Shown here piece by piece: positions 37,270-55,423 of a DNA stretch of 64,000 nt. The notes beneath the pieces are model-generated. The model searched no databases. It was not told where the DNA came from and saw only the letters and a program-made list of their open reading frames with translations. Source of the stretch: a bacterium (GTDB lineage Bacteria; Patescibacteriota; Minisyncoccia; UBA6257; JAGOQP01); the NCBI GenBank assembly GCA_021780615.1, contig JAJXYJ010000021.1:3819-67818 (forward strand). Direction: 5' to 3'. The position numbers and the translations under genes were made by a program. Every line of letters begins with the position of its first letter. The first letter of the stretch is position 1.

Positions 37270-37848
37270 CACCCCCATGGTGCTTTATATACAAAAGATA
37301 CGCGGGTGAAACGGTGCCGGCTTTATGTTGTCACACCTCATCCGCCGCGCGCGGATTTTTTATGCCACGACAGTCTTTTGAGAAAGTGCTCGTCCTTCAA
37401 AAACATAGGGGATTTAAGAAAGCGTCGCTGACTGATCCCATATCAGAACAATTGAGCAATGTAAACTCAATGTAGGTATGCTTTTTGCAGGACATAACAC
37501 TTCTGTAAAAAGTAGAGAAATGCATTTTCATCCTGCGTATGAACAATACAAAAGGATATGATCAAAAAATGAGCGTTTACTCAAGGGCGTATGGTGGATG
37601 CCTTGACACTGCATGGCGATGAAGGACGTAGCGTAGCTGCGAAAAGTCTCGGGGAGGTGCGTAGCAACCTGTGATCCGGGAATATCCGAATGGGGCAACC
37701 CAGTTGCGTAAACCGCAACTATCTCAACACATAAGATGTTGAGGAGCGAACCCGCTGAAGTGAAACATCCCAGTAAGCGGAGGAAAATAGAACGAATGTT
37801 ATTCCCCTAGTAGCGGCGAGCGAAAAGGGAATGAGCCCAAACCTAGAC

Positions 37849-37995
37849 GCATCTCACCAAGGTAAGATGCTTGGGAATTATCAATTTCCAATTTCCAATT
37901 TTCAATCAATTTTCTAATTTTAAAATTTCTAAATTTATTGATCATTGATAATTGATCATTGAACATTTTCTAAGCACCTCGCTTTCGTGAGGTGC
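37849..37995 (+). other. 23S intervening sequence 1. Its ends are complementary and its body is AT-rich.
   Basis: It begins gcatctcaccaagg.agatgcttggg, has an aatttccaatt-repeat body and ends gtgaggtgc. The ends pair as gcatctcac with gtgaggtgc. Confidence 0.55.
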
Positions 37996-38258
37996 GACTG
38001 GGGGTTGTAAGATATGTGCGCTTCTTTATATTTCGCCAAGTACTTGGCATCTCAAGTATTGGGCGATGTATGAAGTTAAGGAAGAGTTACAAATTATTTT
38101 GCTAGCAGAACCTTGTGGAACCGAGGACCGTAGAGGGCGAACGTCCCGTATGCGAAAGCAAAATAACTCTTTAGCATGTAATCTTGAGTACCTCGAAAAA
38201 TGAATGTTTCGAGGGAATCATCCCGCACTATCGGGAAAGGCTAAATACGTGCAGTGAT

Positions 38259-38295
<37 letters not shown>

Positions 38296-39693
38296 CAGGC
38301 CGGCGAGGCCGATGAAATAGAACCTGAAACCATATGCCTACAAGGAACGGGAGCTCTAACTCCGATTTATCGGAGGGAGTGACCGTGTGCCTATTGAAGA
38401 ATGAGCCAACGAGTTTTTGTGTATCGCTGTCTAAGTTCCACGGAACGGAGGCAAAGCGAAAGCGAGTCTTAAAAGGGCGAAATAAAAAGCGGTACGCATA
38501 AGACCCGAAGCCAGGTGAGCTTGCCATGAGCAGGGTGAAGTCTCGAGAAATCGAGATGGAGGCCCGAACCGGTTGGTTGTGCAAAACCTTCGGATGACTT
38601 GTGGTAGGGAGTGAAAAGCTAATCGAACCTGGTAATAGCTGGTTCTCTCCGAAATAGTTTTAGGACTAGCGTCCCGGAAAAACGCTACAGGGGTAGAGCG
38701 ACTGGTAGAGAAGTAAAGGGGGAAACCTCGCCTTCTCTGTCAAACTCCGAATACTGTAGTGAACGCCGGGGCAGTCAGAATGTGGGGGCTAAGCTCCATG
38801 TTCGCGAGGGGAAGAGCCCAGACCGTCAATTAAGGTCCCTAAATCTATGCTCAGTGTAAAAAGTAGTGATTTGCCTCAGACAGGTAGGAGGTTGGCTTAG
38901 AGGTAGCCATCCTTTAAAGAGTGTGTAACAACCCACTACTAGATGGCAGGTTGCGCTGAAAATTTACCGGGGCTAAGCATAGTACCGAAATTACGGATTT
39001 CCTTTATTATTTATAATAAAGGGAGTGGTAGGAGAGCATTCCGTATGCGCTGAAGCCGGACCCGTGAGGGCCTGTGGAGCGTACGGAAGGGAGAATGTTG
39101 GTATGAGTAACCGCAATCCCGATGAGAATTCGGGACCCCGAAAATCCAAGGTTTCCTCCGCAATGGAAGTCAGCGGAGGGTTAGGCGGTCCTAAGGCAAT
39201 GGCGAAAGCCGCAGCTGATGGACAGCAGGTTAATATTCCTGCCCGCCTGTACGGTCCGATGGAGGGACGATGTGTAGTATATAGAGTGTCTCAGTGGTTT
39301 GGCATCCTTAACTGAGGATCTCCGGTAGGCAAATCCGCCGGGGTGCTTTTAATGGCAAATCTAAGGAAAGAGGTGATGTCCGCCTTTGGCGGGTAAAGTT
39401 TATAAAGCACACATCCAAGAAAATCTTCTAAGGATAACCGTATAGGCTCCGTACCGTAAACCGACACTGGTGGGTGAGGCGAGAAGCCTCAGGGGAACGA
39501 GTGAGTCATCCTCAAGGAACTCGGCAAAAAAGCGACTGTAACTTAGGAATAAAGTCTGCCCTGAGCAATCAGGGCCGCAGCGAAAGTATCTCTGGCGACT
39601 GTTTACTAAAAACACAGCTCCCTGCAAACTCGTAAGAGGAAGTATAGGGGGTGACACCTGACCGATGCGAGAAGGTTAACGGTGGAGGTGTAT

Positions 39694-39867
39694 GCATCTC
39701 ACCAAGGCGAGATGCTTGGGAAATTTTTAATTTCCAATTTTGTAATTTTTAAATAAATCTTAATTTTTAATGTTTTAAACATTATGATTTTGAATTTATT
39801 TACAAAATTCAAAAATTAAAAATTATAAAATTATCTTGAGCACCCAGCTTTTGTGAGGTGTATATGC
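39694..39867 (+). other. 23S intervening sequence 2, of the same family as IVS 1
   Basis: It has the same 25-nt 5' module, catctcaccaaggcgagatgcttggg, an AT-rich body, and 3' gtgaggtgtatatgc pairing with the 5' end. Confidence 0.55.
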
Positions 39868-40611
39868 TTACTGCCCGAAGCCCTCGTCAATGTCAGCGGT
39901 AACTATAACCGTTCTAAGGTAGCGCATTTCCTTTCCGGGTAAGTTCCGGAGCGCACGAATGGTGTAACGACTGGAGAACTGTCTCGAGGATGAGCTCGGT
40001 GAAAATGCGATTCCCGTGAAGACGCGGGGTACCTGCAGCGGGACGAAAAGACCCCAGGAGCTTTACTGCAGCTTGATATTGGTAGTAGAGTTTGTATGCG
40101 TAGCATAGTGAGGAGGCTTTGAAGTTTGTCTTTCGGGGCAGATGGAGCCGACAGTGAAATACTCATCTTGCGAATTTTACTCTCTAACCTTGCGGGCAAA
40201 AACCGTAGGGGACAGTGTCTGGTGGGCAGTTTTAATGGGGCGTTATCCTCCTAAAAAGTAACGGAGGAGTTTAAAGGTCAACTTAGTCCGGATGGAAATC
40301 GGACTGAAAGTGTAAAGGCAGAAGTTGGCTTAACGGCAAGACGTACGTGTCGCGCCGATGCGAAAGCAGAACTTAGTGACCCGACGGTAATGTTAAACAC
40401 TTTTTTTAAAAGAGTTTGACTCTTCATAGGAAGGCCGGAGACAACGGATAAAAGCTACCCTGGGGATAACAGGCTGGTGAGGTCCAAGAGTCCATATCGA
40501 CGACCTCGCTCGGCACCTCGATGTCGGCTCACCCTAGCGCGGGGCTGGAGAAGGTCCCAAGCGTTTGGCTGTTCGCCAATTAAAAGGGTACGCGAGCTGG
40601 GTTTAGACCGT

Positions 40612-41117
40612 TCAGATGCCAAATATATAGTTTGGCAGATGGACAGTCTAAATCCCATGAGGCGTTATTCTAAATTATTTCAAATTTCAAATCTTTTCGT
40701 TTCAAACTAGATTAAATATAACCAATAGATCACGGCGGTCATACGTAGAAATATGTATGTATCAAGATAGCTTATTTCGGAGAATTCCCACCCGCAGATG
40801 CGGAGGAGGACCCCGAGGGAAACCTGACTATGCAGTGCATGGAATTTTTAATTTTAAATTTTGTAATTTTTATTGAATTTTTAATGTTTTAATTTTAAAT
40901 TTTAAAATTGATTCATTTATAAGTTGATTGCCCTATAGGGGTCCGCTCATAGCGGAAAAATTGGAAATTGTAAATTGAAAATTATCACTTTTGAAAGTGA
41001 TAAAGGTGCCCGTAGAGACTACACGCTATCCATCCGATTCAATAAGCAGGAGTGTATCCTGATCTTGTCGAAGGATGATGTTATAGTCCAATGCGCATCG
41101 TAATATGCGGAATCATG
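40612..41117 (+). mobile_element. ORF-less group I intron in the 23S rRNA at the I-CreI-type site (E. coli about 2593)
   Basis: The exon context is GGGTTTAGACCGT^...^CGTGAGACAGGTTGGTC. The 5' exon ends in U and the intron ends in G. P7-like GACTAC...TAGTCC elements are present. The intron contains an embedded copy of the dispersed repeat. Confidence 0.6.
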
Positions 41118-41529
41118 CGTGAGACAGGTTGGTCTCTATCTGCTGCAGGCGTTGACACTTGAGGGAAGTTGGCCCTAGTACGAGAGGACCGGGCTGAACG
41201 AACCTCTGGTCTACCAGCTTTGGTACCAACTGAAGCGCTGGGTAGCTATGTTCGGAAGGGATAAGCGCTGAAAGCATCTAAGCACGAAGCCCCTCCCAAG
41301 ATAAGGTGTCTTAGGACCCTGGAAGATGACCAGGTTGATAGGCTCTCGGTGTACGCACAGTAATGTGTTTAGCCAAGGAGTACTAATAGTCCATTTGAAC
41401 GCTCTTTTTTGAGCAGGTATCATGTGTTTCTCTACTTTTTAAAGAAGTGTTATTGAGTGTATACAGTGTGCTTAATTGTTTTGATATTATATAGTGTACG
41501 AAGCAAACGAAAGATAAAAAAATACTTTC

Positions 41530-50966: not shown

Positions 50967-51350
50967 TTATTGAGCGGGAGTTTTATTTTCTATCTGTCGC
51001 TTCCATCCTCCTAACATACGTCCTACTTCATCAAGTGATAACATGAGCACGCCGTAATGTTTGTTGTCTAAAATTTCATGTTCCCATGCGATTTGCAAAA
51101 GAAATTTCAATAAATCGCTGTTGGCGATAGACGAGGAGACAAAAGATAGTTTTTCAAGCTTATTTGAAGCGAAACTTGTACGAAATAGGTGTTCAAGAAA
51201 TACTAAAAACACATCATCAATTCGTATCCCTATGGTGTATCGATCAATTCGCTTTACATGTATAAGTATCTCATGCCACACTTTGTAGGTGTTTTTTGCC
51301 TTCATAAGCACAAGCGGTGCTTGTGCGGGGGGGGGGAGTAAAATTTTCAT
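50967..51350 (-). CDS. avd: Avd-like accessory protein (four-helix bundle), start uncertain
   Basis: The C-terminus, SLDEVGRMLGGWKRQIENK, resembles the Avd / 23S rRNA IVS protein family. Possible starts are at 51350 (abutting the reverse transcriptase ATG) or at 51305. Confidence 0.5.
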   Translation of the reverse strand: MKILLPPPAQAPLVLMKAKNTYKVWHEILIHVKRIDRYTIGIRIDDVFLVFLEHLFRTSFASNKLEKLSFVSSSIANSDLLKFLLQIAWEHEILDNKHYGVLMLSLDEVGRMLGGWKRQIENKTPAQ

Positions 51351-52321
51351 ATGTTTAATCAAAAGTATATAAACACTATAACCATAGAAAATATTCTTGC
51401 AACATGGAAGCAGTTTTTGCGCGGGAAAAAACAAAGAAAAGATGTGATGTTATTTCAAAGTAGATTGACTGAAAATATATCAGAGTTATTTTTTGAACTA
51501 CGCAATCAAACGTATGTGCATGGTTCGTATGTGGCGTTTAATGTTTCAGATCCGAAACCGCGCATAATTCATAAAGCTTTGGTGCGAGATAGAGTTATTC
51601 ATCATCTCATATACAAGACGTTGTATTCCTATTTTGACGAACGCTTCATTCACGATTCATATTCATGCAGAAAAGAAAAAGGCACACATCGTGCGCTTGA
51701 TCGGTTTAACACATTCGCTCGTAAAGTGTCTCAAAATTACACACGCACGTGTTATGTACTTAAATGTGATATACGAAAGTTTTTTGCGAACATAGACCAC
51801 GGGGTACTTATACAAATTTTGCAAAGACACATTGCGGACGAGGATATGCTTTGGCTGGTTGGGCGAGTAATACAGAGTTTTTATTCTGGCGCAGAAGGGT
51901 GGGTCTGCCACTTGGTAACCTTACCTCACAATTGCTTGTCAATGTATATATGCATGAATTCGATATGTATATAAAGCAAGGACTGCGAGCAAAATATTAT
52001 ATCCGTTATGCAGATGATTTTGTAATACTTTCTGATAGCAAGACACATCTTGAGGATCTGCTTATAAAAATAGATCTATTTCTTAATCAAGAACTTCATC
52101 TTTCTTTACACAAAGATAAAACATATATTAAAACATATGCGTCCGGTATTGATTTTCTCGGATGGATACATTTTCCTCGGTATAGGCAACTACGCACCAG
52201 TACCAAGCGACGGATTATAGAAAACATGAGATGGTATCCAAAACCGGAAACAATAAATTCATATAGTGGACTTTTGGGGCATGGAAATACATATAAAGTG
52301 CGAAAACAAATAGGACTATGA
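51351..52321 (+). CDS. DGR reverse transcriptase, split into two ORFs by a -1 frameshift near 51890
   Basis: The N-terminal ORF reads ...YVHGSYVAFNVSDPKPRIIHKALVRDRVIHHLIY...FIHDSYSCRKEKGTHRALDR. The second frame reads GLPLGNLTSQLLVNVYMHEFD and YIRYADDFVIL (YxDD). These are the hallmark DGR reverse transcriptase blocks. The frames switch at agaagggtgggtctgcc. Confidence 0.85.
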
Positions 52322-52416
52322 TGTATGTGTGGTAAGATTTATATTACTTTCTACTCTCTTTTATATAAAGCTTGGGAATAGTGTAATGGTATGTAGGAAT
52401 ATGGTGCAGTGATATC

Positions 52417-55065
52417 TTACTCTAAATGTATTCTTTCTCGAAATAACTTCACGTAGGCGGCTAAATACGGATATTCCGAAAGCGTCGGATTGGTGGCGAT
52501 GAGTTTAAACGCTTCATCGCGGGCCGATTGGACAAAGAGGGGATTCTGCATTGCCTGCATAGCAAGGTCGGGAAGCCCCGTCTGCTCGCTTCCCAAAAAT
52601 TGCCCCGGGCCACGGAATTTTAAATCCTTTTCTGCTAATTCAAATCCGTTTTTAGCCGTGATGAGTGCTTTAAGGCGCGCTTGGGTAGTTGCCGCCCGGC
52701 TGTCGGTCAAAAGGAAACAATATGATTGGTGCTCGCCCCGGCCCACACGACCACGGAATTGGTACAGCTGTGCCAAGCCGAATTTTTCGGCACCTTCGAT
52801 CATCATAATCGTTGCATTGGGCACATCCACACCCACTTCAATAACAGACGTGGACACCAGTATATCAATGTCGCCATCTTTGAATTTTTTCATGATGGCG
52901 TTCTTTTCCTGTGCTTTCAGTTGCCCGTGCAACATGCCAACGCGCAGGTCAGGAAATATTTTTTTGGAAAGTTTGTCATATTCGGTCTCCACATTCTTTG
53001 CATCAAGCCATAACGCGGACTTACGCTGACTTGACCCTCCTCCGCGTAAAGCTCCGGAAGGGTATGACGCGGAACCACGCAGACCGGAGTCGGCGTATGT
53101 CGGCGTGCTGTCTGCGTCTGTCTGCGCATCCGATGGTTCTATGCGCGGGCACACCACATAAATCTGCCTGCCTTCCTGGACGTGTTGGCGGATGAATGCG
53201 TATGCATCGGGGCGTTGGGCGGGGGGTACGATTTTAGTCACGATAGGCTTTCTATCCTTGGGAAGCTCATTGATAAGCGAAAGTTCCAAATCGCCAAAAA
53301 CGGTGAGTGCCAACGTGCGGGGTATGGGGGTGGCGCTCATGCTCAGAAAATGAGGACTTAACGCGGACGTACGCTGACTTGACGCAGACATTTGCTGACG
53401 GGCAGTATCATATACAATTCGTTTTATTTCTGCAGTGGTATTTGAAAAGTTAATGAGTAGAGCAAGTTTATAAGGAGATCCTTTTAGATATGTCCATATT
53501 TGTCTTTCTTCTGTTTTACCTACATAAGGGAGAGCTTTCAGCTCCACAATAATCTTATTTTCAACAATGAAGTCGGGCCTGTATATTCCTATTTTTTTAG
53601 TTCCATATATCACATCTATAGCCTTTTCTTTTTGGAAAGAAATATTTTTATTTTTAAACTCTTCTTCCAATGCTTTTTGATATAGCAGTTCCTTATGCCC
53701 TAGCCCAAGGTTTTTTCTTACGGCAAAAGCTGCTTCTCGTATTGTGTATGTAATATCTTCATAAAGAAGCTTGTTATTTTCTGCGTCAGTCTGCGTCTCA
53801 GTCTGCGATTGTCCGCGTTCAGAGAGCAGGGCTCTCTGATGGACCCCAAAGCGATGCTGTTCATCAATGACTACCAATCCCACATCCTTGAACGCGATGC
53901 TTTTTTGTATGACGGCGTGAGTGCCGATAATGATGTGTACCTTGCCGGCAGCAATGTATTCGGCAAGTTCTTTCTTTTGTATGTCGCTTTCCAGCCCATC
54001 ACCAAAAAATATGGCGGTATGTGATGCGGTCAACAACGCCACGCCATCTGAAAAATTTTTAAAGAATTGTTTGAATGTGCGGTAATGTTGGAGCGCGAGT
54101 ACTTCGGTGGGAGCCATGAATACCGCTTGTTTTTTGTGTGAGGCAACAACAAGTCCTGCGATCGCGGCAACAATGGTTTTTCCTGATCCGACATCTCCCT
54201 GCAGGAGTCGGTTGGTGGCATGATTTTTTGCCAGATCTTCTAAAATTTCATAGAGCGCTTTTTTTTGCGCGAGAGTAAGGTCAAATGGCAGGCAGGAGAA
54301 ATACTCCTTAATTTGTTGGGGGGTGTATGTGCATGCGGAGGCGGGTTGATGGGCGAATTGGTCCTTTTCGCGCGCGTTGATAAGCTGTAGCAAAAACAGG
54401 TCTTGGAATGCGAACCGGTCCCGAGCGTGCGCCGCCTCTGCAAGCGTTTCGGGGTAGTGGATCATGCGGAATGCGTCGGCGATGAGGGGGAAGTTATGGC
54501 TTTCAATGATGTTGGCTGGAAGGAATTCTTCTATGTCCGCGGCATAATCCATGACTTTATCAAGGACAAATCGAATGCCTTTGGAGGTAATGCCTTTGGT
54601 TTCGGGATATATGGGCACGATGCGGGCGGTATGTTTGGGGGCGTAGTGCTCGTGGGAAATGATTTCAAATTCGGGGTTGGAAAGATATAGTTTTTTGCCG
54701 TTGTGGGATACTTTGCCGGCGAGGTTGACGCCCATACCTTCCTTGAAGGTGTTTAATAAATAGCGTTGATTGAACCAGGTTGCCTGTATTTTTCCCGTTT
54801 CATCGGTGATGGTAATGGTAATGACCAGCAGATGCCGGCGGAATGTTTTGGATACCGATATCTTTTCGATGAGCCCATACACCGTTGCCACCTCGCCTTC
54901 CTCGACATCGGCGATGTTTTTAATCTGCGAAAAATCCTGGTAGCGGAATGGCAGGTGGTACAAAATATCTTTGACTGTCACAATGTTGAGCTTGGCGAGT
55001 TTTTCGGTAAATCGGGGTCCGATACCCTTGATATCCGAGAGTGGTGTTGCCAGAGAAAGTTGCAT
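52417..55065 (-). CDS. recG: ATP-dependent DNA helicase RecG, with a large in-frame domain insertion
   Basis: It has an N-terminal wedge domain and helicase motifs GDVGSGKT, DEQHRFGV, SATPIPRTL and QFRGRVGRG. Extra segments lie at about 53353..53811 and about 52984..53136. Confidence 0.9.
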   Translation of the reverse strand: MQLSLATPLSDIKGIGPRFTEKLAKLNIVTVKDILYHLPFRYQDFSQIKNIADVEEGEVATVYGLIEKISVSKTFRRHLLVITITITDETGKIQATWFNQRYLLNTFKEGMGVNLAGKVSHNGKKLYLSNPEFEIISHEHYAPKHTARIVPIYPETKGITSKGIRFVLDKVMDYAADIEEFLPANIIESHNFPLIADAFRMIHYPETLAEAAHARDRFAFQDLFLLQLINAREKDQFAHQPASACTYTPQQIKEYFSCLPFDLTLAQKKALYEILEDLAKNHATNRLLQGDVGSGKTIVAAIAGLVVASHKKQAVFMAPTEVLALQHYRTFKQFFKNFSDGVALLTASHTAIFFGDGLESDIQKKELAEYIAAGKVHIIIGTHAVIQKSIAFKDVGLVVIDEQHRFGVHQRALLSERGQSQTETQTDAENNKLLYEDITYTIREAAFAVRKNLGLGHKELLYQKALEEEFKNKNISFQKEKAIDVIYGTKKIGIYRPDFIVENKIIVELKALPYVGKTEERQIWTYLKGSPYKLALLINFSNTTAEIKRIVYDTARQQMSASSQRTSALSPHFLSMSATPIPRTLALTVFGDLELSLINELPKDRKPIVTKIVPPAQRPDAYAFIRQHVQEGRQIYVVCPRIEPSDAQTDADSTPTYADSGLRGSASYPSGALRGGGSSQRKSALWLDAKNVETEYDKLSKKIFPDLRVGMLHGQLKAQEKNAIMKKFKDGDIDILVSTSVIEVGVDVPNATIMMIEGAEKFGLAQLYQFRGRVGRGEHQSYCFLLTDSRAATTQARLKALITAKNGFELAEKDLKFRGPGQFLGSEQTGLPDLAMQAMQNPLFVQSARDEAFKLIATNPTLSEYPYLAAYVKLFRERIHLE

Positions 55066-55177
55066 AAAGATACATCAGTATATCATGTACAAAAATTGAC
55101 ACGAAACGCCATCTACGGTAGCCTCTATATAGAAAATTCAAATAACTATTTATAAACTCTTTGAGTAGGAGGTACTC

Positions 55178-55423
55178 ATGAAACAGCAAGACGTGGAGAA
55201 AACTAACAATGATCCATTGAAGAAGAATTCTTTTGTCGGGTTAGACAAGGATCAGCTTTCTGCAGCTGATTCTCGAAAGGGCAAAGAACTAGTGGGACCT
55301 GGAGACAATGATCATTGTCGCAAGCTCGATGATGGCGGAGAGTTTTACATTGGCAAGACTCCGCCTATACAATTTTTCCAAGACCAGCATGGAACTGGTC
55401 CGTCGGGAGTTTTTAGTAAATGA
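55178..55423 (+). CDS. Hypothetical small protein (81 aa)
   Basis: AGGAGG lies 6 nt upstream of the ATG. A terminator lies directly downstream. Confidence 0.45.
   Translation: MKQQDVEKTNNDPLKKNSFVGLDKDQLSAADSRKGKELVGPGDNDHCRKLDDGGEFYIGKTPPIQFFQDQHGTGPSGVFSK

Follow-up and report, generated by a model that had tools for sequence, protein, structure and literature searches.

A GxxExxY nuclease cassette lying in frame in a patescibacterial RecG helicase is a probable homing-type mobile element

The DNA analysed here (the window) comprises 64,000 nucleotides of contig JAJXYJ010000021.1 (assembly GCA_021780615.1, positions 3,819 to 67,818), which stems from a member of the Patescibacteriota. On its minus strand (52417..55065) it carries the gene for the helicase RecG, an open reading frame (ORF) of 882 amino acids that hosts two extra segments. 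The larger one, insert 1 (53356..53823, minus strand, aa 415-570), is a cassette consisting of a 5' arm, the ORF for a nuclease domain of the GxxExxY family and a 3' arm. The smaller one, insert 2 (53011..53130, minus strand, aa 646-685), spans 120 nt and is an ORF-less ('solo') hairpin element. We consider it probable that insert 1 is a homing-type selfish mobile cassette that is kept in the mature protein, with insert 2 as its ORF-less hairpin relative.

Architecture of the two inserts

The host protein scores 774.8 bits against the NCBIfam RecG equivalog NF008168 (cutoff 718) and matches the Pfam families RecG_wedge, DEAD, Helicase_C and RecG_dom3_C. It possesses the wedge domain and the two RecA-like domains with motifs I-VI and keeps all columns that are invariant across 118 RecGs, including GDVGSGKT, DEQHRFG and ATPIPR. 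Its nearest named relatives belong to Candidatus Paceibacterota and other Patescibacteria. In a full-length AlphaFold (AF2) model with a mean predicted local distance difference test score (pLDDT) of 85.2 and a predicted template modeling score (pTM) of 0.73, RecG is intact and aa 436-551 form a separate, confidently predicted domain between low-confidence linkers (aa 420-433 and 552-570).

The borders of insert 1 were set by BLASTP and DNA alignment with an empty allele. This allele (protein P0122, locus L006) originates from another assembly, its product is 94% identical to the window RecG and it is empty at both insert sites. Insert 1 stands where the empty allele has a 9-residue linker, in the loop between helicase motifs II and III. 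About 150 extra residues between motif II and the SATPIPRT motif had already been reported in an initial annotation of the window. They are real, and the alignment corrects their extent from 53353..53811 to 53356..53823.

The central part of the insert (53413..53757, minus strand, aa 437-551) encodes a GxxExxY domain, a family also listed as PDDEXK_3. Full-length matches above the respective cutoffs were obtained with PF13366 (E 6.5e-31, 107.5 bits, cutoff 22, profile positions 2-117 of 117) and with TIGR04256 (E 4e-32, 111 bits, cutoff 35, positions 1-116 of 116), and the eponymous motif reads G-H-K-E-L-L-Y. The profile searches bear out the initial annotation, which had proposed a GxxExxY domain resembling PD-(D/E)XK proteins. 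Residues E29, D68, E78 and K80, invariant or nearly so in 41 homologues, are all found in the window copy as the E of GHKE, the D of RPDF and the E-L-K of VELK. Together with the alpha-beta-beta-beta-alpha-beta core they identify the domain as a member of the PD-(D/E)XK nucleases. The insert is predicted to fold as a discrete domain, with an AF2 pLDDT of 91.6. Foldseek relates this model to Cas4 SSO0001, lambda exonuclease, Hjc, a splicing endonuclease and the catalytic domain of I-Bth0305I. Since the best of these matches reaches only E 4e-4 and a template modeling score (TM) of 0.53, no specific function follows from them. At the sequence level there is a weak Pfam match to Phage_endo_I (E 0.006), and the search against the PDB gave no match below E 0.3. 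Comparison with the copy residing at the same RecG site in locus L008 yielded a nonsynonymous divergence (pN) of 0.11 and a synonymous divergence (pS) of 0.78, i.e., pN/pS of about 0.14 at saturated synonymous sites, which argues for long-standing purifying selection on the domain. Judging from sequence and model, the domain looks functional and probably acts as a nuclease.

The domain is bracketed by inverted repeats, with 53357-53379 being complementary to 53800-53822. Repeat and duplex analysis resolved the 5' arm (53780..53819, minus strand) into four ACGC(A/G)GAC-type units of 8 nt, spaced about 11 nt apart and translated as ERGQSQTETQTDAE. The 3' arm (53359..53389, minus strand), as delimited by repeat and fold analysis, contains the units GTCTGCGT, GTCAGCGT and GTCCGCGT, which follow the pattern GTC(T/C/A)GCGT, are complementary to the 5' arm and are translated as SASSQRTSAL. 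The tandem units described for the start of insert 1 in the initial annotation were recovered as GTCTGCG units at 53779-53795 and 53801-53817. In single-strand folds the two arms anneal, forming an imperfect stem about 30 bp long around the whole insert. The minimum free energy (MFE) of the insert is -129.7 kcal/mol, compared with -100.3 kcal/mol for shuffled sequences (z = -5.0), and the arm duplex reaches a free energy (dG) of -62 versus -34 kcal/mol for shuffles (z -5.7). The arms have a GC content of 0.54-0.56, that of the core is 0.28-0.35 and that of RecG is about 0.45-0.55, such that the AT-rich core marks insert 1 as foreign in origin. In the AF2 model the 5' arm region (aa 420-433) has a pLDDT of 53-69 and the 3' arm (aa 557-566) stays below 50; the translated 5' arm is predicted to be a disordered linker. 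The idea that the arms are open in all three reading frames was rejected on inspection, because TGA occurs in another frame of spacers such as ACTGAC.

The cassette has no expression signals of its own in the form of a start or stop codon: the nuclease frame lacks an in-frame start upstream of the domain as well as a stop downstream of it, and a single open frame enters from the host, continues across the 5' arm, the domain and the 3' arm and returns to host sequence. The junction residues are ...ALLSERGQ... and ...TSALSPHF..., and the host-arm junction peptides in the window RecG include ERGQSQTETQTDAENNK and SASSQRTSALSPHF. Just 5' of the arm, the host codons for Q-R-A-L-L-S-E contribute to an 8-bp junction hairpin (tcagagag-ccctg-ctctctga, 53819..53839, minus strand) that is predicted in both MFE and centroid folds. 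It is not present in the empty allele L006. Similar hairpins of 5-8 bp, differing in sequence, occur at the same place in L008, L014, L016, L017 and L020.

Insert 2, delimited by its repeats and by alignment with the empty allele, adds a net 28 aa in comparison with that allele, where DPEKQLTPRQLFQ stands instead. It is of low complexity, carries no ORF and is built from unit types that also occur in the arms of insert 1. Its last 24 nt differ from the 3' arm of insert 1 at one position only (23 of 24 identical), and AF2 models the segment as disordered (pLDDT 28-46). The initial annotation had correctly noticed a second low-complexity insert, the extent given for it (52984..53136) reaching about 27 nt too far into the host. 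It had also pointed out direct repeats of about 24 nt shared by both inserts. These are real (two matches versus none in 100 shuffles) and do relate the inserts to each other; they are located at 53012-53035 and 53360-53383 instead of 53024-53047 and 53360-53389, and are more aptly seen as two hairpin elements' 3' arms. With terminal inverted repeats, shortness, lack of coding capacity and an in-frame position, insert 2 displays the hallmarks of Rickettsia palindromic elements (RPEs) or MITEs (miniature transposable elements with inverted repeats), its fold z-score being only -1.76.

Among the 118 RecGs, many have an ORF-less hairpin element at site 2, and an ORF-bearing one is never seen there. 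The arm peptides at site 2 are closer to those of the site-1 cassette of their own protein than to those of other proteins, a result reached by 9 of 5000 permutations that ignored relatedness. We take insert 2 to be an ORF-less hairpin element of the cassette family in a second tolerant loop, and a relationship between solos and cassettes appears probable. Derivation of solos from ORF-bearing cassettes by deletion was considered and, for the L068/L069 pair, rejected, since the solo in locus L068 has arm units of a different (GCGATT) type from those of the cassette in L069. The L068 solo is a different element at the site of the L069 cassette.

Distribution among RecG alleles and in other host proteins

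An ORF-bearing cassette occupies site 1 in 54 of the 118 close RecGs, and the remaining proteins have linkers of 10-15 residues or short arm-like remnants there. Nor is the arrangement unique to the window: public data contain at least 54 RecG clusters in which this site is filled by the cassette. Some of these proteins are named 'GxxExxY protein' by NCBI. Site 1 is filled in RecGs that share only 45-69% identity. At the same time, P0216 and P0132, two proteins about 98% identical, differ in their state at site 1, as do several other near-identical pairs. The recurrence of the element at one site in distant hosts and its presence or absence in close alleles constitute the pattern of a homing gene. 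Mapped onto a neighbour-joining tree built from the host columns, the filled and empty states require at least 18 changes, compared with an average of 39 for shuffled labels, and host and insert distances among the carriers are only weakly correlated (r = 0.16). In P0165 and P0166, RecGs from Wolfebacteria-like genomes, the cassette resides at a different place, namely in the wedge domain after the residue aligned to aa 138 of the window protein. At this spot 12 of the 118 RecGs contain an insert of at least 15 aa.

The genes of L069 (cassette) and L068 (different solo) are 97-100% identical, with a drop to 79-87% in the roughly 100 nt that flank the site on each side. This looks like a co-conversion tract left by recombinational transfer. 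The alignment of the window gene (52417-55065) with L006 (66-2189) is a mosaic: the stretch of roughly 190 nt that separates the inserts (53150-53340) is 95-98% identical, and the rest 76-90%. This suggests recombination within the RecG gene. A further candidate case, the split RecG gene of L002, was dismissed as an out-of-frame insertion. It is explained by a 1-nt frameshift after ARQH (L002 2440-2500) that is unrelated to the element.

The cassette is not confined to RecG. A HMMER scan of 1.84 billion representative proteins returned 7258 family members; of the roughly 65 closest ones, the majority form part of larger proteins. When the insert was used as query together with short RecG flanks, the domain was recovered inside other proteins with similar low-complexity flanks. 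The flanking peptides read TQTDAD, RTNADS or INADKDAD on the N-terminal side and YDTAR...(Q/P)RxSA(L/S) on the C-terminal side; the differences between hosts arise from reading the same DNA units in different frames. According to Pfam, full-length PDDEXK_3 domains split DHFR, RtcB, GatB, LeuRS, AsnB, transketolase, GT4 and Wzy_C, and LepA, GT2, a ValRS-like protein and the leaders of pilin-like proteins are further hosts. All 20 embedded copies that were examined have complementary arms that are GC-richer than the core, with duplex z-scores from -2.2 to -8.2.

A scan of one genome per species operated at the DNA level and was hence unbiased towards fusions. It yielded 18 loci with at least 58% identity to the window domain. 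In all 17 informative cases the frame is open and that of the host both upstream and downstream, and host motifs are recognisable on both sides. Relatives with at most 50% identity are, in contrast, free-standing small ORFs in intergenic gaps. One metagenome-assembled genome (MAG) holds the cassette in both RecG and LepA (L017, L018).

Among the LepA loci, six (L003, L009, L010, L011, L023 and L025) have junction hairpins on both sides of the domain, about 60 nt upstream of it and 50-80 nt downstream. At the 5' junction, the host V-R-M codons pair with an inverted copy read as H-(P/S/A)-(D/H/N) in a 9-bp hairpin, in which all of the 54 cells are paired and compensatory changes are seen in three pairs; note that the six sequences were picked after the pattern had been seen. 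The 3' junction has Q-V-E codons paired with host L-N-L codons. Two other LepA loci do not conform to this pattern. The pairing and its compensatory changes imply that base pairing dictates the junction amino acids in these proteins, and the junction hairpin in RecG may be the same phenomenon.

Several observations on individual hosts deserve mention. In P0034, P0037, P0072, P0308, P0345 and P0359, the cassette and its 3' arm form the extreme N-terminus of type IV pilin-like proteins and immediately precede the FTL(I/V)E motif. Here, prepilin peptidase would remove the cassette, making this another harmless location. The LeuRS P0258 contains a NUDIX domain embedded at aa 301-419 in addition to a GxxExxY cassette towards its N-terminal end. 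The cassette-bearing LepA of L010 lies on a contig (JAUYPG010000026.1) of a MAG labelled Nanoarchaeota archaeon, which reflects either mis-binning or an occurrence of the element outside Patescibacteria. The free-standing GxxExxY genes (L026-L062) stem from Patescibacteria, Bacteroidota and others and fill short intergenic gaps, for example between two oxidoreductase subunit genes (L043, L046). About 20 of 31 have strongly complementary 90-nt flanks (z <= -3.5), and the hairpin-bracketed form may be a property of the whole GxxExxY family.

Next to RecG, the window contains a pair of genes resembling a diversity-generating retroelement (DGR) at 50967-52321, encoding a bAvd-type accessory protein (PF22296) and a reverse transcriptase. 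On the plus strand, the latter is broken into two ORFs that overlap (51351-51974 and 51851-52321), an arrangement suggestive of a frameshift or of an error in sequencing.

Retention in the protein and mode of spread

In principle, an insertion in an essential gene may be rendered harmless by removal from the protein, by removal from the transcript or by being tolerated. Protein splicing was rejected for the cassette: no Hint or intein family of Pfam matches the window RecG at E <= 0.01, the junctions lack His-Asn and the junction residues are wrong for an intein, in full agreement with the initial annotation. Introns of groups I and II were likewise rejected, as nothing reaches the Rfam gathering threshold and the ORF fills the interior of the insert; at E <= 1, the region 52300-55200 gave only one chance match to an sRNA. 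A link to rRNA intervening sequences was also examined and rejected. The element resides in a protein-coding gene, and none of 20 related loci contains rRNA. The 23S rRNA gene of the window (37571-41406) measures 3836 nt against a 2925-nt model and has insertions totalling about 900 nt, in which neither a GxxExxY ORF nor an ORF of more than 120 aa nor a cluster of ACGCAGAC units was found.

A different kind of removal would consist in processing of the stem like a 23S rRNA intervening sequence followed by re-ligation, e.g., by RtcB, or in bypass of the insert by the ribosome. Stem-flanked ORFs in rRNA intervening sequences have a similar architecture, and the stem of about 30 bp does close off the whole insert, with junction hairpins adjoining it. 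On the other hand, removal at the mRNA level would not need the downstream frame to be kept, and all 17 informative loci are stop-free and in frame on both sides. The domain, moreover, has no start or stop of its own and neither a ribozyme nor a known RNA family matched, so that we regard removal as quite unlikely. The cassette is most probably translated and kept in the mature RecG, with the arms as flexible linkers. This reading agrees with the initial annotation, which had considered both inserts to be probably retained, and is in line with the modelled discrete domain on disordered linkers.

The following scenario would account for these features. The cassette would be transcribed and translated as part of RecG, with the arms being read as short hydrophilic disordered linkers. 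The nuclease would fold as a separate domain off the helicase, and RecG would be functional without RNA or protein splicing. Harm to the host would be avoided by the choice of tolerant loops, by preservation of the frame and by the linkers that the element brings along. Spread would be of the homing type and dependent on recombination, both among alleles of RecG and into the equivalent loops in further conserved genes; it would most probably be started by the encoded nuclease, with some flanking host sequence carried along with the cassette. Nuclease-initiated copying into empty alleles fits the shared site in distant hosts, the filled and empty states of close alleles, the weak co-divergence, the conserved nuclease and, for one pair, the diverged flanks.

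Several points weigh against a homing-type cassette. The alignment with the empty allele revealed no target-site duplication at either insert site, and the filled alleles resemble replacements of the host loop and not clean insertions. The window and L006 do not show a drop in identity by the site; identity is in fact highest between the two inserts. Within the 64-kb window, tblastn and a scan for unit clusters found such elements in RecG only. Insert 2 folds barely better than shuffled sequence, and both retention in the protein and nuclease activity are features that we infer. Finally, the 8-nt arm units at a spacing of about 11 nt would fit transposase-type end binding, too. The missing target-site duplication, the replaced loop residues and the 8-nt units, which may be binding sites or purely structural, keep a transposon-like mode alive as a rival. 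In this case the arms would be the terminal inverted repeats of a cut-and-paste transposon and hold the binding sites for the nuclease acting as transposase, the solos would be MITEs mobilised in trans, and recurrence at one site would reflect target preference. Inverted arms with units about one helical turn apart, the closeness of solo arms to the ORF-bearing copy in the same protein and the multitude of hosts and sites would all be explained. What speaks against such a transposon, apart from the absent target-site duplication, is the filling of the same site across RecGs of 45-69% identity and the drop in flank identity between L069 and L068, which suggests recombination with a donor allele. 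In addition, a 125-residue PD-(D/E)XK domain alone is, to our knowledge, not a known transposase. We therefore judge this explanation unlikely.

According to the initial annotation, the insert would be a nuclease module of a branch-migration helicase. Such an adaptive fusion, in which the nuclease might cut the junctions that RecG remodels, would agree with the intact active site, with purifying selection, with the many RecGs that hold the insert at exactly this site and with the weak likeness to junction-resolving enzymes (Phage_endo_I and, among the Foldseek matches, Hjc). It does not hold up against the occurrence of the same cassette and arms in at least a dozen unrelated enzyme families and the existence of near-identical RecGs without the insert. 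The low host-insert correlation, the foreign GC content, the inverted-repeat ends and the two RecGs with the cassette at a different site point in the same direction, and we consider the fusion very improbable. An artefact, i.e., a chimeric join of a GxxExxY gene into RecG during assembly or binning, might be suspected because, at contig ends, several gene calls in databases begin or stop within the cassette, as would be expected for repeats that break assemblies. The identical 882-aa protein is, however, also recorded from GCA_027355965.1 and exists on two contigs (NCBI, ENA), and this architecture, with an unbroken frame to either side, recurs in dozens of independent assemblies from four sources. 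The probability of an artefact is accordingly negligible.

A homing-type selfish cassette remains the reading that we prefer. A bolder version of it, which we put forward tentatively and would not yet favour, is an undescribed class of mobile elements of Patescibacteria that could be termed 'spliceless intein'. A PD-(D/E)XK cassette would colonise surface loops of conserved proteins, its arms would serve both as a mobility structure (at the DNA or RNA level) and as flexible linkers that render the insertion harmless, and the resident cassette would mobilise hairpins that lack an ORF or act as their template. In this version, the junction hairpins comprising host codons and the compensatory changes in LepA suggest that base pairing with flanking host sequence takes part in integration or target choice.

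Significance and relation to known systems

In the searchable literature on GxxExxY/PF13366, on in-frame elements in the Candidate Phyla Radiation and on rRNA insertions in these bacteria, we found no description of an embedded in-frame cassette. The architecture is present but unremarked in public databases. If our interpretation is correct, the cassette represents a third way in which a homing-type gene can sit harmlessly in an essential gene. Introns achieve this by RNA splicing and inteins by protein splicing; the cassette would persist as a tolerated in-frame domain, with flexible linkers supplied by its own inverted repeats. It would thereby join homing endonuclease genes with Rickettsia-type palindromic repeats, for which it would be a candidate autonomous partner. 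Many puzzling 'GxxExxY protein' annotations would also be accounted for, as would low-complexity loops in patescibacterial proteins. In practical terms, the cassette affects gene calling, assembly (contigs break inside it) and phylogenies built on marker genes such as those for LepA, RecG and aminoacyl-tRNA synthetases. Finally, a role would be indicated for the GxxExxY family; the function of PDDEXK_3 is listed as unknown in a superfamily survey (PMC3424549).

Among known systems, the free-standing GxxExxY proteins have in common with the cassette the full-length domain, the catalytic residues and, in about two thirds of the genes assessed, complementary flanks. These proteins differ in having their own start and stop codons, in residing in short intergenic gaps and in being at most 50% identical, while the clade with at least 58% identity is embedded in host ORFs. 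With inteins containing a nested homing endonuclease, the cassette has in common that it is selfish, encodes a nuclease and lies in frame at or near conserved motifs of housekeeping genes (helicases, aminoacyl-tRNA synthetases, GTPases), and that it is distributed patchily in close relatives and occupies the same site in distant hosts. In contrast to inteins, it has neither a Hint domain nor intein junction residues, apparently stays in the mature protein, is bracketed by translated DNA inverted repeats and encodes a nuclease of the PD-(D/E)XK and not of the LAGLIDADG or HNH type. Homing endonucleases of the PD-(D/E)XK type do exist, I-Ssp6803I reportedly being one that belongs to a group I intron. 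They resemble the cassette as small nucleases of selfish elements that target a conserved gene, and the structural likeness of the domain to them, with the catalytic domain of I-Bth0305I among the fold matches, is one of general fold only (best TM of these matches 0.53). They reside in self-splicing introns or are free-standing, whereas the cassette contains no intron ribozyme.

A long stem that encloses an ORF within a highly conserved gene is also the hallmark of ORF-bearing 23S rRNA intervening sequences, e.g., in Coxiella (PMC4990558). Those sequences interrupt rRNA and are cut from the transcript, whereas the cassette interrupts protein-coding sequence and keeps the frame. RPEs, on the other hand, are palindromic repeats that lie in frame in unrelated metabolic genes, are translated and are compatible with the fold of the host protein (PMC10969869). 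Insert 2 and the solos in other RecGs look like RPEs. RPEs are about 150 bp in length, carry no enzyme-coding cargo and have no known autonomous partner; here, similar arms, built from short ACGCAGAC-type units, bracket a conserved nuclease ORF, and the hosts are Patescibacteria.

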